A DNA stretch of 54,851 nucleotides from a virus (lineage: Duplodnaviria; Caudoviricetes). The notes below the pieces were generated by a model. That model made no database searches. It saw only the letters and a list, made by a program, of their open reading frames with translations, and was not told the DNA's origin. Below are positions 9,570 through 52,077 of the stretch, in pieces. Within the stretch, counting starts at the first letter, position 1. Every line of letters begins with the position of its first letter. The position numbers and the translations under genes are program-made. Location of the stretch: the IMG/VR virus record IMGVR_UViG_3300027733_001467, positions 1 through 54,851 of that record; one strand, written 5' to 3'.

Positions 9570-10883
9570 ATGTCTTGGCAGATATTTAAAAATAGTATAT
9601 TATCAGTTATTAAAGCAGGTGATGCTTTAAATAGTGTAGATGAAATGGCCACTTTATATGCAACTGCATATGATACTGCTATAAAAAGTGGCGGAGATAC
9701 TGTAAATAAAATAAAAATAAAAAATGGTAATCTGCCATTAATGATTCAATTATTTAAAATAAACTTTTATACAGGGCAAGCATCTATGGTGCCGTATGAT
9801 TGGGTTGGTGGAATGAAGCCCGGAATACTTACATATTGGCAAGGAGCTGAATTAGAAACAGCACCCATACCAATAATACCTGCAATTGGGTCTGTTGTAA
9901 ATATAAAAAATGTGTCTGGTACAGTTACTACGCCAGGCGATTGGCAACCCGGTTCTCCATTACCACCTAATAGCAATCCGAATTTAATTATAGATGCATT
10001 TATAGTAAACGCAATTGCACATTTACAAACTGTAAGTGGTATTATAAGTACTATATCCTTATACCCACCATTGGCAACTCCGGGTCCTGGTATTGTAAAT
10101 TGGTCTGGCTATTTTGTAGAACCAGCATCGCCGGGATTATCGATAATGGTAGATGAGCCATCCACAGAAGCATTATTAGAAACAATACCAGACGATAATA
10201 ATACGGTAGAAGGAGCTAAAGCTGTGGTTGCAGAAACTGGAGCTGAAGTTTTAACTGATGGTGGAGAAGATGGCGGCGAACAAATAGAAGCAATCAAAGA
10301 TGAATTACCACCTGATAATCCACCATACGAAGAAGTTCCAGAGGAGGAAGCTGAGGAAGTTAGTACAACCGAAGAAACAACTAATGAAGAACCAACTCCA
10401 ACAAATTGTAATTTTGGTTCTATAAACTATAATATGAATTTATCTCCAAATTATAGATTAAGAGATTTATCAATTGGATGTGTGTTTGCTCATAAAATTA
10501 AAGCACAGGTTGGTTTAAGTGAAAAAGATATTATTTGTAATTTAAGAAATATAGCAGTTAATATATTAGAACCATTAAGAGAAAGATATCCAAATATTAG
10601 AATAAATTCGGCATTTAGAGGTACGGCTAGTATACCAGGTGGAGTATCTCAGCATCAAAAAGGAGAAGCGATTGATATTCAAATACCAGGCGCATCTCCT
10701 AAACAATATATACCATTAGCAAATTGGATAAGAACTCATTTACCATTTGACCAATTGATATTTGAACATGGAAACACAGTGTGGTTACATATAAGTTGTA
10801 AAAAAAGTTCAGGACAAAGAAAACAACTACTTACTATGTATAAAGGTAGATATTCCAGTGGTTTAAAGCTATACTATGTTTAA
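9570..10883 (+). CDS. Protein with C-terminal M15 Zn peptidase (peptidoglycan hydrolase)
   Basis: INSAFR, SQHQKGEAIDI (HxxxxxxD) and WLHIS motifs after an acidic linker. Confidence 0.85.
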   Translation: MSWQIFKNSILSVIKAGDALNSVDEMATLYATAYDTAIKSGGDTVNKIKIKNGNLPLMIQLFKINFYTGQASMVPYDWVGGMKPGILTYWQGAELETAPIPIIPAIGSVVNIKNVSGTVTTPGDWQPGSPLPPNSNPNLIIDAFIVNAIAHLQTVSGIISTISLYPPLATPGPGIVNWSGYFVEPASPGLSIMVDEPSTEALLETIPDDNNTVEGAKAVVAETGAEVLTDGGEDGGEQIEAIKDELPPDNPPYEEVPEEEAEEVSTTEETTNEEPTPTNCNFGSINYNMNLSPNYRLRDLSIGCVFAHKIKAQVGLSEKDIICNLRNIAVNILEPLRERYPNIRINSAFRGTASIPGGVSQHQKGEAIDIQIPGASPKQYIPLANWIRTHLPFDQLIFEHGNTVWLHISCKKSSGQRKQLLTMYKGRYSSGLKLYYV

Positions 10884-16099: not shown

Positions 16100-17296
16100 A
16101 TGGCAATACAAAATTTTAAAAATATAGTTGATTCAAAAGCGTATAGAGTTGATAGTAAAGATAGAGAAATCTTTGAAACAGGAGATTTACAATCTTTTTT
16201 TGGATTAAGTGATTCAGATTCTATTGAATTTATAATATATGATGCAAACGATAATCAATTACCGCAATCAAATTATGGATTGGTTAGATATGTTCCATTA
16301 ACAACTCAAAATATTAGAGATTACTTTCTTATAGCAGATGGTACTGTATTTCAGCGTTTTAATTTTCCAAACGAATATTTTATTGATGTTGAACGATTAT
16401 TAAAAGAAGCTGGATATAATAATGGTATATTTAAAACACAAATTACTTTAATTAGTAATAGAATTGGTAGTAATTCAAAGTATGATAAACTTTGGATTTC
16501 TGAAATATCACCATCAAGAACAGAAATAAGATTACTACCATTAAAAAGAAAAGAAACTGAAAATACTGATTTATTTCAAAGATTCGGTGTAATGATACAT
16601 GATGGTGAATTTAGAGATGATACAATTTACTATGCAATTGAATTTATTGAAAAAATAAATCCAACTCAAATATCAATTTATATAAAAGAAAAGTATTCTG
16701 AAAATTGGTTTAATAAACTTAATGCAGAATATAACATAAAAGGATTTGAAACATTTACAACAAGTGTTTATACTAAGTTTATGCAATCGGCATTGTATGA
16801 ATTTACAAATAGAATATCGGATATAAGAAATTTAGAATATGGTAATCCAAAACCAACTAAACCACCATTACAACTTTCAAAAGATACTATTCAAGATACT
16901 TGTTATAAACTTTTAATAAAAGCAATTGATTTTTATTTATTAACGCCAACGTTTAGCGAAAACTCAACATATGATACTCAAACAGATGATAGTATGGATA
17001 TTGTTGGGCAGGTTTTACAAAGAACTGAATCAGATACTAAAATAGATACAAAAGATCCTGTTATTAAAAAGGCTGAGATAGTTAAAGTGAACGATGTTGA
17101 AATGGATGTATTATTGGAAAAAGAAAAACCAATGCCTGATGATAGAAACCCAGAACCAGCACCTGAACCAACAAAGCCAACACCTGGAGGTGGAGGTAGT
17201 GGTGGAGGTAGTGGTGGAGGTAGTGGTGGAAATCCTTGGGATTCTAATTATGGTAATAGAGTAGATAGACCGGTAGAAAACGAAGCATTAAAATAA
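16100..17296 (+). CDS. Putative structural protein with Pro/Gly-rich tail
   Basis: 398-aa ORF with ISEISPSRTEIRL; C-terminal PEPAPEP and GGGS repeats. Confidence 0.75.
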   Translation: MAIQNFKNIVDSKAYRVDSKDREIFETGDLQSFFGLSDSDSIEFIIYDANDNQLPQSNYGLVRYVPLTTQNIRDYFLIADGTVFQRFNFPNEYFIDVERLLKEAGYNNGIFKTQITLISNRIGSNSKYDKLWISEISPSRTEIRLLPLKRKETENTDLFQRFGVMIHDGEFRDDTIYYAIEFIEKINPTQISIYIKEKYSENWFNKLNAEYNIKGFETFTTSVYTKFMQSALYEFTNRISDIRNLEYGNPKPTKPPLQLSKDTIQDTCYKLLIKAIDFYLLTPTFSENSTYDTQTDDSMDIVGQVLQRTESDTKIDTKDPVIKKAEIVKVNDVEMDVLLEKEKPMPDDRNPEPAPEPTKPTPGGGGSGGGSGGGSGGNPWDSNYGNRVDRPVENEALK

Positions 17297-38865: not shown

Positions 38866-41058
38866 ATGAGTAAAAAGAAATTACTGTATATTTGTCCGCA
38901 TCTTTCTACCGGCGGACAACCTCAATACACTTACAAGCAGATAAAGCAATTTATCAATGATTATCAAATAGAAGTTGTTGAAATAAACAATAGTGGTGGA
39001 AATGCGTTTGTAGTACAAAAGAATAGAATCAAAGCATTAGTTCCTGTTCATACATTAGGGGATAACAGAGCAGAAATAATTGATATCATTAATACTTTCA
39101 AACCTGATATTATACATTTTCAGGAGATTCCACAACATGATTTATCAACTGATATTTTAGATAGAATATTTTCGGATAAAAGAAAATATTTTATTGTAGC
39201 ATCTACACATGGGTCTTTAACAAATCCTGAAGAAATAATTTACCATCCCGATAGATATATTTTAGTATCCGAATGGAGTAGACAAAAGTTTATTGATACT
39301 GGTGTTGAAACTGATATATGGGAATATCCAATCGAAGAATATGTGTTTGATAAAGCAACTGCACAAAAAGAATTAGGATTTGAATCTGATTGGAAGCATG
39401 TACTTAATGTTGGATTATTTGCACCAGGTAAAAATCAAGGTGAAGTATTTGCAATAGCAAGGCAATTAGAAAAATACAAAATTAAATTTCACTTTGTAGG
39501 AAATCAAGCTGGAAACTTTGAACATTATTGGGGAGATATAATGAAATACAAACCTGATAATTGTATTGTTTGGGGAGAACGGAATGATGTTGATACTTTT
39601 TACGCAGCATCGGATATGTTCTACTTTAGTTCTATAATTGAATTAAATCCGTTATCAGTTAAAGAAGCATTATCATACGGACTACCATCTATATTTAGAA
39701 AGTTACCAACTTATTTAGATACATACGATAATAATCCATTGGTTACATACATTGGTGATGATTTAAAAGTTACTAAAAAAATTATATTAGAAACTTTACA
39801 ACCTGAATTCAATGAGATACCGGGTTGGTTTGTTTATGATACTATGTATGATGATATGGTTAAGAATGCTAAAGGTGGTGAAACTTTTGTTGAGTTGGGT
39901 TCTTGGTTTGGTAAGTCTACAAATTATATGGCAACTAAAATTAAAGAATCTGGTAAGAATATAAAATTCACAACAATAGATACATTTAAAGGAACTGCAG
40001 ATGAAGGGTTGCATAATACAATAGTAAATGGTTCTTTTGATGGAGATATATTTTATGAATTTATAGATAATACAATCATATCAGATAACTACGGAACATT
40101 TGATATCATAAAAGATACATCACATAATGCTACCAACCAATTTCAAAATAACAGCATTGATTATATAATGTTAGATGGTGGGCATAGTTATGAGGATGTA
40201 AACGAAGATATAAAACTTTGGTATAATAAAGTAAAACCGGGTGGATATATTTCTGGAGATGATTATGGTGGTAGTTTCTTTCCTGGTGTTACTAAAGCAG
40301 TTGATGAATATTTTTATAATCAATGTGAAATTGGATTTAGAACTTGGAAAATGAAAAAACCAAGAATACAAATAAAGCATTTATTAACAAGACCTGATGA
40401 TGCTAGAGAAAGAGTAAGTATTCAATCATTAAAGCAATTATCAAAATACGGAATGGATTATGTACAAATGATAAATACTCCATACGAAGGATTAGCACCT
40501 GTTGAAAATTGTAGAAGACCTGAAAATGTTAGTAAAGATAATAAGCCGGGTGAATTATATCCGGGAGCAGGTATTGGATATATTACGGGTAGACACTATG
40601 GTTGTTATCTAGCACATAGAGGAGCTTTGGAATCTATTGATGATACAAATTATGATTATACTTTAATATTTGAAGCAGATGCTTTTATTAATGTAGGTAT
40701 TGAGGAGTTTGTTGAAATAGTACATAGAGCTTGTTTCATTTCACAAAGAGATAATGTTTATTATATAGGATTCGCAAATAATCCTTCTTGGAATAGATGG
40801 GGAGTTGATGAACTATTTGCAAAAACTGATTTTAATCAAGACCTTGCACATTGTTATTTAATTCCAAATCGACACAAGCAATTCTATATGGATAGACTGG
40901 AAGATATTGGATGGGATGTTGGTGATTTATGGTACAACCATGTATTCTATGACCATAGACATTTGAGATATACAACTAATAAAAATTATAGTAAGCAAGC
41001 TGAGGGCTATTCTTTATTAGATGAAAAAATAAAAAGTTGGAAAGAAAATTGGAACTAA
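38866..41058 (+). CDS. Fusion of GT4-like glycosyltransferase, SAM methyltransferase and GT25-like domain
   Basis: PHLSTGG, VG...PGKNQ and E..PLSVKEALSYGLP (GT-B); VELGSWFGKS, LDGGHSYE and KPGG.I.GDDY (methyltransferase); GCYLAH and LIFEADA (GT25-like). Confidence 0.85.
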   Translation: MSKKKLLYICPHLSTGGQPQYTYKQIKQFINDYQIEVVEINNSGGNAFVVQKNRIKALVPVHTLGDNRAEIIDIINTFKPDIIHFQEIPQHDLSTDILDRIFSDKRKYFIVASTHGSLTNPEEIIYHPDRYILVSEWSRQKFIDTGVETDIWEYPIEEYVFDKATAQKELGFESDWKHVLNVGLFAPGKNQGEVFAIARQLEKYKIKFHFVGNQAGNFEHYWGDIMKYKPDNCIVWGERNDVDTFYAASDMFYFSSIIELNPLSVKEALSYGLPSIFRKLPTYLDTYDNNPLVTYIGDDLKVTKKIILETLQPEFNEIPGWFVYDTMYDDMVKNAKGGETFVELGSWFGKSTNYMATKIKESGKNIKFTTIDTFKGTADEGLHNTIVNGSFDGDIFYEFIDNTIISDNYGTFDIIKDTSHNATNQFQNNSIDYIMLDGGHSYEDVNEDIKLWYNKVKPGGYISGDDYGGSFFPGVTKAVDEYFYNQCEIGFRTWKMKKPRIQIKHLLTRPDDARERVSIQSLKQLSKYGMDYVQMINTPYEGLAPVENCRRPENVSKDNKPGELYPGAGIGYITGRHYGCYLAHRGALESIDDTNYDYTLIFEADAFINVGIEEFVEIVHRACFISQRDNVYYIGFANNPSWNRWGVDELFAKTDFNQDLAHCYLIPNRHKQFYMDRLEDIGWDVGDLWYNHVFYDHRHLRYTTNKNYSKQAEGYSLLDEKIKSWKENWN

Positions 41059-42206
41059 TGATATACGATAATTTAAAAAAGAATTTAAATAACATAATAC
41101 AAATAAAAAACAAAGTAATTGTACACTTTGTTAGAGGACCTTTTGTTGAAGTAAAAGGAAATACAAATGCTGAGTATCGTATTGAATTTATAGATAGAAG
41201 TACTGGAAAAGTTATTCACACTGGAAACATAAAAAATAATATGTGGAGTAAGTGTAATATAGAATATTTTGTAAATTGGCAAATAAAGATATTCGAAAAT
41301 GGAAAATTGTATGAGGAACATAACTACGATGCAACTGGTAAAAGAGTTTATATAGCTATGGATTCAAGAGCATTAGGTGATACATTGGCATGGTTTCCAT
41401 ACTTTGAAGAATTCCGAAAACAATGGGGATGCAAATTAATAGCATCAACCTTTATGAATGACATGTTTAAAGATGAATACCCAGATATAGAATTTGTAAA
41501 TCCTGGCTCTGGTGTTGAAAATATATACGCAATGTATGGAGTTGGATTATATTATAAAGAAAATGATGAATATAATGAATATAAAAATCCAAATAATTTT
41601 AGAGAGCAAACAATGCAAAAAATGGCATCTGATATTTTAGGATTGGAATATAAAGAAGTTAGACCAAAAATAAAAAAGAGAGATGTTAAAATAGATAAAC
41701 AATTAAAGCAAGTTTGTATTGGTGTATTTGGAACGGCTCAATCTAAATTTTGGAATAACCCAACAGGATGGCAGGATGTTGTAGACTGGTTGAATACTAG
41801 AGGTTATACAGTTAAATTAGTATCTAAAGAGGGAGATGACTATATGGGTAATAAACTACCAACCGGAATAATTAAACACCCAGAAGGACCATTAGAATTA
41901 GTTATGGATGAAATGAAAAAATCAAAAGCATTCATTGGAATTGGTAGTGGGTTGAGTTGGTTAAGCTGGGCCCTAAATGTTCCTACTGTATTGATTAGTG
42001 GATTCTCATATGATTGGGCTGAAATGCAGGATTGTGTAAGAATTGCGGCACCTAAAGGTAAATGTGAGGGTTGCTTTAATAGGATTAGATTAGATGCTGG
42101 GGATTGGAATTGGTGCCCTGACCATAAAGGTACTCATAAACAATTTGAATGTACAAGAACAATAACTTCAGATAGTGTGATAAAAGAATTGGAAAAATTC
42201 TTATAA
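41058..42206 (+). CDS. Autotransporter O-heptosyltransferase-like protein (TibC/Aah family, GT-B)
   Basis: LGDTLAWFPY, AQSKFWNNPTGW, FIGIGSGLSWLSWAL..P.VLISGFS and Cys cluster CEGCFN..WCP.H....FECTR; ATG overlaps the upstream TAA. Confidence 0.88.
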   Translation: MIYDNLKKNLNNIIQIKNKVIVHFVRGPFVEVKGNTNAEYRIEFIDRSTGKVIHTGNIKNNMWSKCNIEYFVNWQIKIFENGKLYEEHNYDATGKRVYIAMDSRALGDTLAWFPYFEEFRKQWGCKLIASTFMNDMFKDEYPDIEFVNPGSGVENIYAMYGVGLYYKENDEYNEYKNPNNFREQTMQKMASDILGLEYKEVRPKIKKRDVKIDKQLKQVCIGVFGTAQSKFWNNPTGWQDVVDWLNTRGYTVKLVSKEGDDYMGNKLPTGIIKHPEGPLELVMDEMKKSKAFIGIGSGLSWLSWALNVPTVLISGFSYDWAEMQDCVRIAAPKGKCEGCFNRIRLDAGDWNWCPDHKGTHKQFECTRTITSDSVIKELEKFL

Positions 42207-42688: not shown

Positions 42689-45091
42689 ATGAATGAATTA
42701 TCAAATTTTTTAGTAGAATCAATATTATTGGAAGCGGCCTCTATAAACAAAGTAATTGTTGTTTATTCTGGCCGCTTTCAACCTTTTCATAAGGGCCATT
42801 ACGCAACTTATGATAATTTAGTACGCAAATTCGGAAAGGATAGTGTGTATATCGGAACTTCTAATGTTACCGATTCAAAGAAATCTCCATTTAATTTTAA
42901 AGAGAAGAAAGCAATAATGACAAATATGTTTGGTATTCCATCAAACAAAATTGTCAATATCAGAAATCCCTATGCACCTGAAGAAATTCTAAATAAATAC
43001 GATGAAGATACAACTGGTTTAATAGTTGTAGTTGGTGAGAAAGATGAGCAAAGACTTGGTGGTAAATATTTCACACCATATAAAGGTAAAGTAACTGAAC
43101 CTTTTTTAGATAGAGGATATGTTTATGCAGCACCAGCAGAATCAAACCCAATTAGTGGTACTGATGTTCGTTATTGGTTAAGTGCTGGAAGTGCTGCTGA
43201 TAGAAAGAAAAACTTTACAAAAGCATATCCTAGATTTGATGACCAAATATTCAAATTAATTACCCTTAAGTTAAAGAGTTTAAAAGAATGTATTAATGAG
43301 GAAATTAAAATAAATGTAAAAATTGGAGATACTATTCTAATGGGTAGATTTAAAAATAAAAAAGTAGTTGTAAAAACAATAGGTACAGATGATTGGGGAA
43401 TGCCAACAATCAATGGTAAGAAGGTAGCAACATTTAGAATTCCAAAAAAAGATAATTTAAAAGAAATGGGACTTGGTGGCGGAGCTGGTGTAGGTTTAAG
43501 TTTACCGGGTGGATATATTAATGGAGCACCTGATAGTAAAGATGTTAAGAAGAATAGCAAAAAACTTAACAACAACGGAATGAGTGGATATGAGGAGATT
43601 GATGAAGAAAATAACATTTTAGAATACACTGGAAACGAAGCGTTTGATAATGATACGGGTGGCACTACTGGACACACTTGGAATAAAGATTGGGAAGAAT
43701 ATGATAAAGCTGAATATTATTTAGAAGATTTAGAAGGTTGGGAAAATATGAATCATAAGAGTGATAAAGATGACAAAATAAGAAAAAACAAAGTTCCAAT
43801 TTTTAATCACGACGATACAACTGATAAATACAATCGTATATTAAAGCATGATTTAAAATCTCCTAATGATTTTATAAAAGAATCATTAATAATGGAAGGT
43901 GGAGCTTATGGACATATGGCACATCCATTTGATATTGAGATGGGTTTAACATTTGGTGACCTTAAACAAATAGTAGTAAGAGCTCTTAATGGTGATTTGG
44001 AATTAGCAAGAGAAAAGACTGATGGGCAGGCATTGGCAATTAGTTGGGTAAATGGTAGATTGGTTGCAGCTCGTAATAAATCTCATTTAAAAGATAAAGG
44101 AGTTGGTGCTATGACAATAGGACAGGTAGCAGATAAGTTTGCTGGTAGAGGTGGATTAACTGATGCATACAATTTCGCTATGCAAGATTTATCTAAAGCA
44201 ATTGGAGCCCTATCCGAACCTCAACGTAAGAAGGTTTTTAACGATGGTAGTTCGTTTATGAACTTGGAAGTAATATATCCAACGTCTGTAAATGTAATCC
44301 CTTACAATCAACCCCTATTAGTATTTCATGGTACATTTGATTATGATATGACTGGTACTATAATTGGACAAAATCAAGACGCAGCAAAAGTATTAGGTGG
44401 AATGATTAAGCAAGTAAATGCACACGTTCAATCCAAATATACAATACAGGGACCTCCAATGCAAACACTTCCTAAAACCGAACATCTTTCTAAATTACAA
44501 GGAAAGTATTTAGGAATGATTTCTAAACTACAATCTGAATTTGGATTAGCTGACTCTGATGGTGTAGCAGATTATCACCAAGCTTGGTGGACAAATTTTG
44601 TAGAAAAGGGAGCAAAGAAATTGGATGCACAGCAAAAGATAGGACTAATTAAAAGATGGGCTTTTGGAGATAAAAGCTTTCGTATAGCGGATATAAAAGA
44701 TGATAAGATAAGAGCTTGGGCTGACCAAACAGATAAGCAAGACCAACAAAAGATATCAAAGCAAAATTTAATGAGATTTGAGGAAATATTCTTAGGTGTG
44801 GGAGCAGATGTATTATCATTTATGACATCAGTATTAACTGCAAATCCTGCAGAAGCTACTAAACAAATGAAAGCAAAATTACAAAGTACAATATCGCAAG
44901 TAAAAGCAAGTGGTGACCCTAAAAAGATTGCAAAACTTAAATTAGAATTAAGTAGAATGCAGGCTTTAGGTGGATTTGATAAAATCGTACCAAATGAGGG
45001 ATTGGTATTTGTATATGGTGGAAACACCTATAAACTAACAGGTGCATTCGCACCCCTAAATCAAATTTTAGGCATATTTTTTGATTCTTAA
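42689..45091 (+). CDS. HxGH (cytidylyl/NMN-adenylyl)transferase-like domain fused to an RNA-ligase-like KxDG domain
   Basis: SGRFQPFHKGH and ISGTDVR in the N-domain; EKTDG, ARNK, NLE, EGLVF and YK in the C-domain. Confidence 0.75.
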   Translation: MNELSNFLVESILLEAASINKVIVVYSGRFQPFHKGHYATYDNLVRKFGKDSVYIGTSNVTDSKKSPFNFKEKKAIMTNMFGIPSNKIVNIRNPYAPEEILNKYDEDTTGLIVVVGEKDEQRLGGKYFTPYKGKVTEPFLDRGYVYAAPAESNPISGTDVRYWLSAGSAADRKKNFTKAYPRFDDQIFKLITLKLKSLKECINEEIKINVKIGDTILMGRFKNKKVVVKTIGTDDWGMPTINGKKVATFRIPKKDNLKEMGLGGGAGVGLSLPGGYINGAPDSKDVKKNSKKLNNNGMSGYEEIDEENNILEYTGNEAFDNDTGGTTGHTWNKDWEEYDKAEYYLEDLEGWENMNHKSDKDDKIRKNKVPIFNHDDTTDKYNRILKHDLKSPNDFIKESLIMEGGAYGHMAHPFDIEMGLTFGDLKQIVVRALNGDLELAREKTDGQALAISWVNGRLVAARNKSHLKDKGVGAMTIGQVADKFAGRGGLTDAYNFAMQDLSKAIGALSEPQRKKVFNDGSSFMNLEVIYPTSVNVIPYNQPLLVFHGTFDYDMTGTIIGQNQDAAKVLGGMIKQVNAHVQSKYTIQGPPMQTLPKTEHLSKLQGKYLGMISKLQSEFGLADSDGVADYHQAWWTNFVEKGAKKLDAQQKIGLIKRWAFGDKSFRIADIKDDKIRAWADQTDKQDQQKISKQNLMRFEEIFLGVGADVLSFMTSVLTANPAEATKQMKAKLQSTISQVKASGDPKKIAKLKLELSRMQALGGFDKIVPNEGLVFVYGGNTYKLTGAFAPLNQILGIFFDS

Positions 45092-51480: not shown

Positions 51481-52077
51481 ATGAAAGGACTTTTAATAGA
51501 AACAAAATTATTTGAGGGAAAAGTACAAGAAGATGAAGGTGGAAGAACCATTGTTAAAGGTATTCTACAAAGAGCTGGTGCTGAAAATCAAAACGGAAGA
51601 ATTTATCCGAAAGAAATCCTAATGAGAGAAGCTAAGAAGTATGAGGTATTCATTAAAGAGCGTAGAGCATTAGGTGAATTAGACCATCCGGATTCTACTG
51701 TAATTAACTTAAAGAATGTTTCTCACAATATTAGAGAGATTCATTGGGACGGTGATGATTTATGTGGAACTGTTGAAGTTCTATCTACTCCATCTGGTAA
51801 TATCTTAAAAGAATTATTGAAAGCTGGTATCCTATTAGGTATTTCATCAAGAGGTATGGGTTCTACTCGTAACTTATCTGGAAACAAAGTAGAGGTACAA
51901 GAAGATTTTGAATTGATTGGTTGGGATTTTGTATCTAACCCATCTACACATGGTGCATTTATGGTACCTGTAAACGAATCGGTTAATAGAGGTTTACAAC
52001 AAATAGGAACTGATGTTTGCGGAGACTTCTGTAAAGCACAAGACTTAATGAGAGAAATAATAACTGAAATAGCATAA
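51481..52077 (+). CDS. Prohead core protease (T4 gp21-like)
   Basis: NQNGRIYP, ALGELDHP, TPSG.I, GISSRGMGS and DFVSNPS motifs. Confidence 0.95.
   Translation: MKGLLIETKLFEGKVQEDEGGRTIVKGILQRAGAENQNGRIYPKEILMREAKKYEVFIKERRALGELDHPDSTVINLKNVSHNIREIHWDGDDLCGTVEVLSTPSGNILKELLKAGILLGISSRGMGSTRNLSGNKVEVQEDFELIGWDFVSNPSTHGAFMVPVNESVNRGLQQIGTDVCGDFCKAQDLMREIITEIA

Follow-up and report, generated by a model that had tools for sequence, protein, structure and literature searches.

A candidate head-cargo polyprotein pairing a predicted HIGH-superfamily adenylyltransferase with an RNA-ligase-like module in a phage genome fragment

We analyzed a 54.8-kb contig (54,851 nucleotides, here called the window), an AT-rich fragment of the genome of an uncultured T4-like phage with nearly all genes on the plus strand, and centred on the 800-residue protein encoded, from an ATG start, by the plus-strand open reading frame (ORF) at 42689..45091. 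Our models suggest that this protein joins two nucleotide-transfer enzymes: an N-terminal domain of the HIGH superfamily of adenylyltransferases (N-domain), and a C-terminal module (C-module) that appears to be a new family in the superfamily of ligase-type covalent nucleotidyltransferases, with RNA ligases as its nearest neighbours. Whether the whole protein is a head-cargo precursor that is cut into an adenylyltransferase and an RNA-repair enzyme of ligase type is, in our judgement, evenly balanced. If so, a 10-residue leader would direct this precursor to the core of the prohead, as T4 leaders do; a gp21-type prohead protease would cut after the Glu of [L/I]-x-E tripeptides where modules meet, the clearest such site being the one that immediately precedes GGAxGH; the released enzymes would travel in the head and enter the cell along with the DNA; the C-module would rejoin broken RNA, most probably tRNA that defence nucleases of the host had cleaved; and the adenylyltransferase would help with some nucleotide-dependent step. 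The initial annotation of this DNA had described a putative packaged polyprotein of an HxGH nucleotidyltransferase and an RNA-ligase-like enzyme; on recomputation, the ORF and all motifs listed for it were found where they had been placed (Table 1).

Predicted fold and catalytic motifs of the C-module

The AlphaFold2 (AF2) model of the C-module, built from 41 sequences, is confident (predicted local distance difference test (pLDDT) 92.2; predicted template-modelling score 0.88). We ranked its fold by three structure searches: Foldseek against the PDB, a Foldseek-independent search of 48,161 chains, and a comparison with the viral models of BFVD. In each of them RNA ligases come out ahead of DNA ligases and capping enzymes. 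The first 11 rows of the Foldseek-independent search, 10 RNA or tRNA ligases and one DNA ligase (Z 7.1-8.9, 182-209 aligned residues), are NgrRnl, T. brucei REL1, fungal Trl1 (three rows), T4 Rnl1, T4 Rnl2 (two rows), an archaeal RNA ligase, the RNA-ligase-like Aquifex chain 3qwu (its title reads putative DNA ligase) and a DNA ligase; DNA ligases and capping enzymes also match the model at Z 5-7. Foldseek against the PDB places T4 Rnl1 first (E 4.2e-3, probability 0.96), with RNA ligases at the top ranks. BFVD returns 24 matches at E<=1e-3, led by the family's own members and followed by an S-PM2 'cytidyltransferase-like' protein, a SET-domain fusion, a PA5oct protein and then the proteins named RNA ligase, five in all (E 2e-4 to 1e-3). 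The Rnl families closest to the C-module are tied (Z 8.1-8.9) and not separable by structure scores.

Conservation in a 41-sequence alignment (36-69% identity; model numbering equals protein numbering minus 394) follows the motif order of these enzymes. E133 (E527 of the protein) and E376-G377 (E770-G771) are invariant, and K49 (K443), D51, G52, R68, N69, K70 and K388 (K782) are conserved in at least 90% of the sequences; K443 is predicted to form a covalent lysyl-nucleoside monophosphate. In hhalign registers K49 falls on K99 of T4 Rnl1 (the residue mutated in PDB 5tt6, by the entry title) and on K35 of Rnl2, and E133 on E159 of Rnl1. A further element at the N-terminus of the module, GGAxGHxxHPFD, is highly conserved and specific to the family. 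The model also contains a helical insert (residues 204-371) between strands E149-168 and E377-389. The ligase alignments span residues ~10-400 with 182-209 residues aligned, and therefore skip this ~170-residue insert. After the motif IV-V hairpin the model has just two short helices; the protein ends 18 residues after K782, so that no oligonucleotide/oligosaccharide-binding (OB) fold domain follows motif V. Fold ranking and conserved catalytic motifs thus agree with the ligase-type covalent nucleotidyltransferase that the initial annotation had placed here, and the model is best read as a new family of that superfamily with RNA ligases nearest.

A search of five relatives with PF09511 (RNA_lig_T4_1, the T4 Rnl1 type) gave no match, nor did its control, and is uninformative. 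A profile link to solved ligases was rejected, the best PDB profile match being a spurious eS6 (E 0.007).

Fusion partners in relatives

We scanned with Pfam (E<=1e-3) 59 relatives that lack a strict HxGH; four more were omitted for size. CTP_transf_like is found in 15, a PolyA_pol head with an RNA-binding domain in 3 (best E 1.6e-64), HD in 2, a Zeta_toxin/AAA_33 P-loop kinase in 2, a 2H phosphoesterase in 1, and Ros/MucR zinc fingers in 4. Two of these proteins (P0144 and P0165) place a CCA-adding-enzyme-like unit (PolyA_pol, RNA-binding, HD) before the C-module; two others (P0183 and P0173) run kinase, HIGH variant, C-module, with HIGH backed by Pfam in P0183 and by the signature motif only in P0173; another (P0216) runs HIGH, zinc finger, C-module. 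A syntenic ortholog in a complete 276-kb phage combines HIGH, HD, PolyA_pol and C-module in 1735 residues. Partners of these kinds belong to the customary end-healing and 3'-end-repair enzymes of RNA-repair systems, as two accounts describe them in the parts available to us (PMC7824862, PMC9503650). The fusion of the C-module to CCA-adding, HD, Pnk-type kinase and 2H domains in relatives therefore points to RNA repair, and a role in that direction is supported for the family. RNA repair, one of two functions guessed in the initial annotation, thus gains support from the relatives; the other, restoration of nicotinamide adenine dinucleotide (NAD), does not (see Discussion).

A Trl1/Tpt1-type pathway, in which NAD would serve 2'-phosphate removal, was rejected: PF01885 was found in 0 of 5 relatives, with the control giving a signal in three genomes. 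A complete 271-kb relative carries, at G002:C1:174079-176158, a 246-residue PolyA_pol-type ORF ~1.3 kb from a 138-residue AAA_33 kinase ORF, and these may be an RNA-repair pair acting in trans.

The N-terminal adenylyltransferase domain

Pfam CTP_transf_like matches residues 25-161 (E 7.7e-8, 33.1 bits against a cut-off of 21), and the PHROG matches of the domain, phrog_395 and phrog_3041, are both annotated 'cytidyltransferase'. The domain carries GRFQPFHKGH and ISGTDVR, the latter of the SGTxxR type that we take to be the second signature of HIGH nucleotidyltransferases; G28, R29, F30, Q31, P32, H37, T158 and R161 are invariant across 36 sequences. The AF2 model built on this alignment (pLDDT 88.8) has 44 PDB matches at E<=1e-3. 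Those listed (template-modelling (TM) score 0.41-0.56) are all adenylyltransferases of nicotinic acid mononucleotide (NaMN) or nicotinamide mononucleotide (NMN), namely NadD, NadM and the archaeal NMN adenylyltransferase (NMNAT), or phosphopantetheine adenylyltransferase (PPAT), with no cytidylyltransferase or sugar-nucleotide structure among them. On these matches the N-domain is predicted to be a HIGH-superfamily adenylyltransferase, nearest to NMN/NaMN adenylyltransferases, with PPAT fitting about equally well. The HxGH nucleotidyltransferase of the initial annotation accordingly stands, on its Pfam score and its fit to HIGH adenylyltransferases, and its cytidylyltransferase class gives way to NMNAT/NaMNAT/PPAT.

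The association of the HIGH domain with the C-module is robust, HIGH being the commonest fusion partner. The GRFQP signature occurs in 103 of 150 representatives, continuing as HxGH in 61, as xGxHH in 32 and otherwise in 10. The xGxHH form, GRFQPxGxHH in place of GRFQPFHxGH, is carried by relatives P0173-P0200 and others, and this branch may have a changed substrate or mechanism.

Leader and junction sites

The first ten residues of the protein (L4, S5, F7, L8, E10) resemble the targeting peptides of T4 head proteins. In T4 IPIII, the first 10 residues are enough for targeting to the head; targeting depends on residues 4 and 7 and processing on residues 8 and 10, and Asp10 blocks cleavage with targeting unaffected; T4 gp21 itself carries LIE-9 (PMC9026906, in the part available). 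The N-termini of gp24 and Alt in the deposited T4 record are 10-residue stretches on the same template. Across the window, the template L4, S/T/K5, I/L/F7, L8, E10 matches four ORFs, including those starting at 294, 736 and 1041, and each of the four exact matches lies at an N-terminus, where shuffled sequences would be expected to give 0.002; the pattern was defined post hoc. The leader is modelled by AF2 as a helix (residues 2-14, lower confidence), and an [LI]xE occurs in the leader of 39 of 46 HxGH-bearing relatives with the signature within the first 120 residues; the 7 without it mostly start near the first strand. The initial annotation had let the leader end at LLE: this tripeptide holds as a second site, but the leader is better taken as the first 10 residues, ending VE at residue 10.

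The junction before the C-module is the most consistent candidate site. The tripeptide [LI]xE stands immediately before GGxxGH in 108 of the 140 representatives that could be scored, with P3 being L or I in 135 and P1 being E in 111, C in 15 and M in 11; of 11 divergent loci from genome bins, 9 have it too. In the C-module model, which is confident elsewhere, this junction is disordered (residues 1-13, pLDDT<50). Stand-alone forms of the C-module have poorly conserved leaders of 7-29 residues that end at the junction site, and one begins M-GGAYGH. Taken together, the conserved [LI]xE junction, the T4-type leader and the gp21 homolog encoded 6 kb downstream give indirect support to protease release, and head packaging and processing of the 800-residue protein are plausible.

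Related 'cytidylyltransferases' have been detected in virions: that of S-SZBM1 in purified cyanophage virions by 2 peptides (PMC9146016), and ORF154 of S-CREM2 by 3 peptides, such proteins being described in the available part of that report as frequent in cyanophage virion proteomes (PMC10665884). The neighbouring virion protein S-SZBM1_139 was considered as a split-off C-module and rejected as unrelated (hhalign probability 0.08%).

Three tandem ORFs (294-731, 736-1044 and 1041-2267) share the leader template, the ORF at 6797-7069 has a 9-residue variant of it, and the ORF at 7070-7885 begins MKLSE followed by Cys. Pfam finds no family in any of these ORFs, which are candidate head-internal proteins processed by the prohead protease. 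The gp21-type protease of the window itself has LIE at residues 5-7 and LFE at 10-12, like LIE-9 of T4 gp21, which suggests self-processing.

Linker and small beta module

Between the two enzymes lie further candidate sites. In many relatives of the alignment a hydrophobic-x-Glu was seen, uncounted, where the last helix of the N-domain ends. The small beta module that follows has a core G-x-PT-x-NG-K/R/Q, found in 37 of 150 representatives, and an [LIF]xE lies within 25 residues after it in 30 of these 37, against a background of 26%; the module is 62% identical to a stretch of the huge-phage record LR756502.1. In some representatives it directly precedes the C-module. The remaining linker (residues 260-400; G, N, D and K at 11% each) differs in length and content among relatives, whose total lengths range from 455 to 1241 residues, and can hold DUF5661, or HD and PolyA_pol domains.

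Size and distribution of the C-module family

The family is large, essentially viral and almost absent from cultured phages. An exhaustive search gave 1,785 clusters (50% identity) at E<=1e-3 and 540 at E<=1e-30, a word-based search gave 4,515 matches among 8,000 candidates scored, and the module is present on at least 570 viral contigs. It lies within 30 residues of the protein end in 132 of 141 representatives, and also occurs as stand-alone proteins of 390-435 residues. Only 3 of 50,697 deposited phage records carry it, one of them from a cultured phage, Microcystis phage Mel-JY01 (PP395634.1), which has a full-length relative. Among 185,579 species genomes there are 12 loci, all in metagenome-derived bins or assemblies, and TerL (the large terminase gene) adjoins 6 of them; the neighbour clusters in the ESM Atlas are 98-100% viral.

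Two genome-bin contigs show other arrangements. On one (L089), two neighbouring genes encode the HIGH domain and the C-module, that of the C-module bearing a leader of its own that ends LVE; on the other (L090), a single open frame holds both in reversed order, with the C-module first and the HIGH domain downstream of it.

Discussion

The C-module shares with the ATP-dependent RNA ligases (T4 Rnl1, T4 Rnl2/REL1, Trl1-LIG, Rnl3, Rnl5/NgrRnl) the nucleotidyltransferase fold and the motif order (I, KxDG Lys; III, Glu; IV, EG; V, Lys), and its relatives share with RNA-repair systems the association with kinase, phosphoesterase and CCA-adding domains. It differs from them in having no significant sequence similarity, in the GGAxGHxxHPFD element at its N-terminus, and in carrying a ~170-residue helical domain inserted between motifs IIIa and IV, whereas RNA ligases have an appended C- or N-terminal domain. 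The N-domain resembles NadM, archaeal NMNAT, NadD and PPAT in the HIGH Rossmann-like fold and the GRFQPFHxGH and SGTxxR signatures; unlike the NMNATs, it scores far under the NCBIfam cut-offs, has no Nudix domain and no NadV in relatives, carries a leader of 15-20 residues and is fused to a ligase-like module.

The likeness to T4 internal proteins, gp24 and Alt lies in the 10-residue leader with hydrophobic residues at 4, 7 and 8 and Glu at 10, and the window resembles the T4 head system in its gp21 homolog and in the position of the gene in the head module; unlike the T4 head proteins, the 800-residue protein is an enzyme chain with several internal candidate sites, polyprotein-like. Polyvalent proteins (Iyer et al. 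2017, PMC5512222), which are predicted to be injected early, similarly hold several unrelated enzymatic domains per chain, vary among relatives and are encoded beside virion genes. Their hub domains MPTase, ArdC-N and MuF are absent, by Pfam, from the 800-residue protein and the 59 relatives, and their release is by an in-chain peptidase and not, as proposed here, by the prohead protease; the part of that paper available to us reports no link between polyvalent-type 2H domains and RNA ligases. The virion-associated cyanophage 'cytidylyltransferases' (S-SZBM1_140, S-CREM2 ORF154 and the S-PM2 591-residue protein) are homologous to the N-domain, and the S-PM2 protein also matches the C-module model structurally (BFVD, E 2.8e-6), whereas S-SZBM1_140 has no C-module. 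The available parts of PMC9146016 and PMC10665884 treat these proteins as metabolic enzymes of NMNAT/TagD-like type and say nothing of a ligase-like portion.

Several observations weigh against a packaged polyprotein with a ligase-type C-module. The ligase assignment draws on conserved motifs, on fusions and on a fold ranking whose scores are modest, and is made with no significant sequence similarity: the C-module has no match in Pfam (no hit at E<=0.1), PHROG, NCBIfam or PDB sequences; a PDB profile search with it finds no ligase; PF09414 (RNA_ligase) is touched by just 4 of 41 relatives, at E>=0.0057 and below its curated cut-off; and the hhalign registers given above are statistically weak (probabilities 0.4% and 2.5% for Rnl1 and Rnl2). 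Z scores of 7-9 lie in a range often reached by models without a clear match. The structure prediction and Foldseek comparison proposed in the initial annotation therefore gave a divided answer: ligases are top-ranked with T4 Rnl1 first, but the PDB yields 0 matches at E<=1e-3 (TM ~0.24). The 800-residue protein itself contains no end-healing domain. As regards packaging, the post hoc definition of the leader pattern counts against it; S-SZBM1_140 shares just the N-domain with our protein (29% identity, E 6e-7), and the S-CREM2 authors warn of co-purification (PMC10665884). Cys or Met at P1 in 26 of the 140 junctions is not cuttable by a Glu-specific protease, so the tripeptide may have another role. 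The [LI]xE density of the protein is 12.5 per 1000 residues against a window average of 12.0, and it is thus the position of the sites, not their number, that is non-random. No plus-strand match to the late-promoter consensus TATAAATA lies upstream of the ORF, and TATAAATA is not enriched in the window (26 against 17.9 +/- 4.6).

One alternative is an ordinary cytoplasmic phage enzyme with the same domains and the same RNA-repair role, neither packaged nor cleaved, in which [L/I]-x-E-GGAxGH would be part of the enzyme, e.g. a nucleotide- or metal-binding element, and the N-terminal helix would serve folding or oligomerisation. The strong conservation of GGAxGHxxHPFD right after the site means that the whole stretch could be one functional motif; the variable P1, the background density and the missing late promoter fit as well; and the T4 RNA-repair enzymes Pnk and Rnl1 are not known as virion cargo. 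Such an enzyme accounts less readily for a junction that is disordered in a confident model, for stand-alone forms whose non-conserved leaders end at the site or, in one case, are replaced by a start exactly at GGAYGH, for a 10-residue leader that recurs on unrelated ORFs of the same phage and is dispensable for the fold in relatives starting at the first strand, and for a gene position fixed at the head-gene block: across 80 syntenic viral loci, which form a single lineage and not independent samples, a small-terminase (TerS)-like gene follows in 79, TerL in 78, the portal gene in 69, and the protease gene in 32, the last count being limited by contig ends. We therefore rate it as unlikely, while giving it real weight.

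The remaining alternatives concern what the two enzymes do. A true NMN adenylyltransferase could rebuild NAD+ against NADase defences, and may recycle, for an NAD+-dependent C-module, the NMN set free when the ligase is adenylylated; by sequence and by structure the N-domain lies closest to NMN/NaMN adenylyltransferases, GRFQPFHKGH fits the NadM/archaeal type, and 2 of 41 relatives have a weak match to the NAD-ligase adenylation domain (E 0.063). PPAT fits about equally well, though, and the xGxHH variant alters the signature. The N-domain scores at most 35.1 bits with the NCBIfam NMNAT models against cut-offs of 127-449 (397 for the best model) and 25 bits against 181 with TIGR01527, and Pfam finds no Nudix domain in the protein. 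All 5 relatives searched, of which three have complete genomes of 245-276 kb, lack NAPRTase/NadV (the window itself is only a fragment), though every NadM-bearing phage of one survey, as far as that report was available, also has NadV (PMC9503650). NAD salvage is not supported by these comparisons, and we consider it distinctly improbable. Still less probable, in our view, is that the C-module is a DNA-end ligase, a capping-like enzyme, or a protein or nucleic-acid AMPylase of the same fold: the fold is common to DNA ligases and capping enzymes, and neither the N-terminal motif nor the helical insert has a parallel among known RNA ligases, but RNA ligases outrank both classes in the three structure searches, no OB domain is present, and the fusion partners in relatives are RNA-end enzymes. 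That the N-domain makes a nucleotide sugar (e.g. ADP-heptose) for the neighbouring glycosyltransferases at 38866-42206 we hold to be very remote; a GT9 heptosyltransferase-like gene does lie 0.5 kb upstream and is syntenic in 23 of the 80 loci, but among relatives whose upstream sequence extends for at least 5 kb, many keep the N-domain without a GT9 gene, its listed PDB matches hold no sugar-nucleotide or cytidylyltransferase structure, and its constant partner is the C-module.

Returning to a packaged precursor, we tentatively propose, as a possibility on which we would not insist, that a large and little-studied group of aquatic T4-like and jumbo phages preload an RNA-repair kit as a protease-cut polyprotein and so counter tRNA-cleaving defences before phage gene expression, with the NMNAT-like domain acting on RNA chemistry and not in NAD salvage. 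This domain might adenylylate a 5'-phosphate RNA end, by the same phosphate-to-ATP chemistry as on NMN; alternatively, it might renew the ligase's nucleotide cofactor locally. RNA ligases, HIGH adenylyltransferases and T4-style head targeting are each well known, and their combination is not; the literature searched, as far as its texts were available, holds no description of an RNA-repair enzyme as virion cargo. If true, the proposal would establish a new class of ejection proteins as well as a new family of RNA ligases marked by an unusual helical insertion, and would give a concrete function to the 'cytidylyltransferases' that recur in cyanophage virion proteomes; the C-module has had no family assignment despite being very common. 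The idea is directly testable, since the cultured Mel-JY01 carries a full-length relative.

Genomic setting and other features of the window

Upstream of the ORF, Pfam identifies a glycosyltransferase/methyltransferase gene and a GT9-like gene, next to a 131-residue coiled-coil gene. Directly downstream are a 227-residue gene at the small-terminase position and a T4-type large terminase (Terminase_6N; phrog_2, E 5.5e-49), followed by a T4 gp20-type portal gene (E 3.8e-65) and the gp21-type protease, which is presumed to be the enzyme that processes the 800-residue protein. There are no tRNA genes within the window.

Table 1. Coordinates of the 800-residue protein's features and of the prohead protease gene in the window (aa, residues of the protein)
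Feature	Position	Strand	Basis or remark
N-terminal leader, aa 1-10, with second L-x-E site (LLE), aa 13-15	42689..42733	+	candidate capsid-targeting propeptide
HIGH-superfamily adenylyltransferase domain (predicted), aa ~20-200	42746..43288	+	Pfam, PHROG, AF2, alignment
HKGH, aa 34-37	42788-42799	+	
ISGTDVR, aa 155-161	43151-43171	+	
Junction after N-domain, LKE aa 198-200 and INE aa 202-204	43280..43300	+	candidate protease sites
Small beta module, aa ~205-255	43301..43453	+	mobile mini-domain; VKIGDTILMG from aa 210
Second LKE, aa 257-259	43457..43465	+	candidate protease site after beta module
Variable linker, aa 260-400	43466..43888	+	composition; Gly-rich PGGYINGAP peptide, then spacer
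IME, aa 401-403	43889..43897	+	[L/I]-x-E junction before C-module, conserved across representatives
C-module, aa 404-800	43898..45088	+	GGAYGHMAHPFD at its start; AF2 fold, motif conservation
EKTDG, from aa 442	from 44012	+	
Motif I, K443	44015-44017	+	KxDG Lys
ARNK, at aa 461		+	
Motif III, E527 (NLE, aa 525-527)	44261-44269	+	conserved Glu
Helical insert, aa ~598-765 (~170 aa)	44480..44983	+	AF2; between motif IIIa strands and motif IV
Motif IV, EGLVF, aa 770-774	44996-45010	+	E770-G771
Motif V, K782 (YK, aa 781-782)	45032-45034	+	conserved Lys
gp21-type prohead protease	51481..52077	+	Peptidase_S77 E 4.3e-27; phrog_207 E 3.9e-50; 34% identity to T4 gp21, E 2e-22

DUF6267, an identity for the 800-residue protein suggested by an ESM Atlas lead, was rejected: the Pfam model has no match to the gene, and its sole match in the window, at 16607-16801 within the ORF at 16100-17296, is weak and below the cut-off (E 6.4e-4, 13.6 bits). 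Elsewhere in the window, the 437-residue ORF at 9570-10883 has a C-terminal Peptidase_M15_3 domain (E 2.9e-5) and is possibly a virion-associated cell-wall hydrolase.

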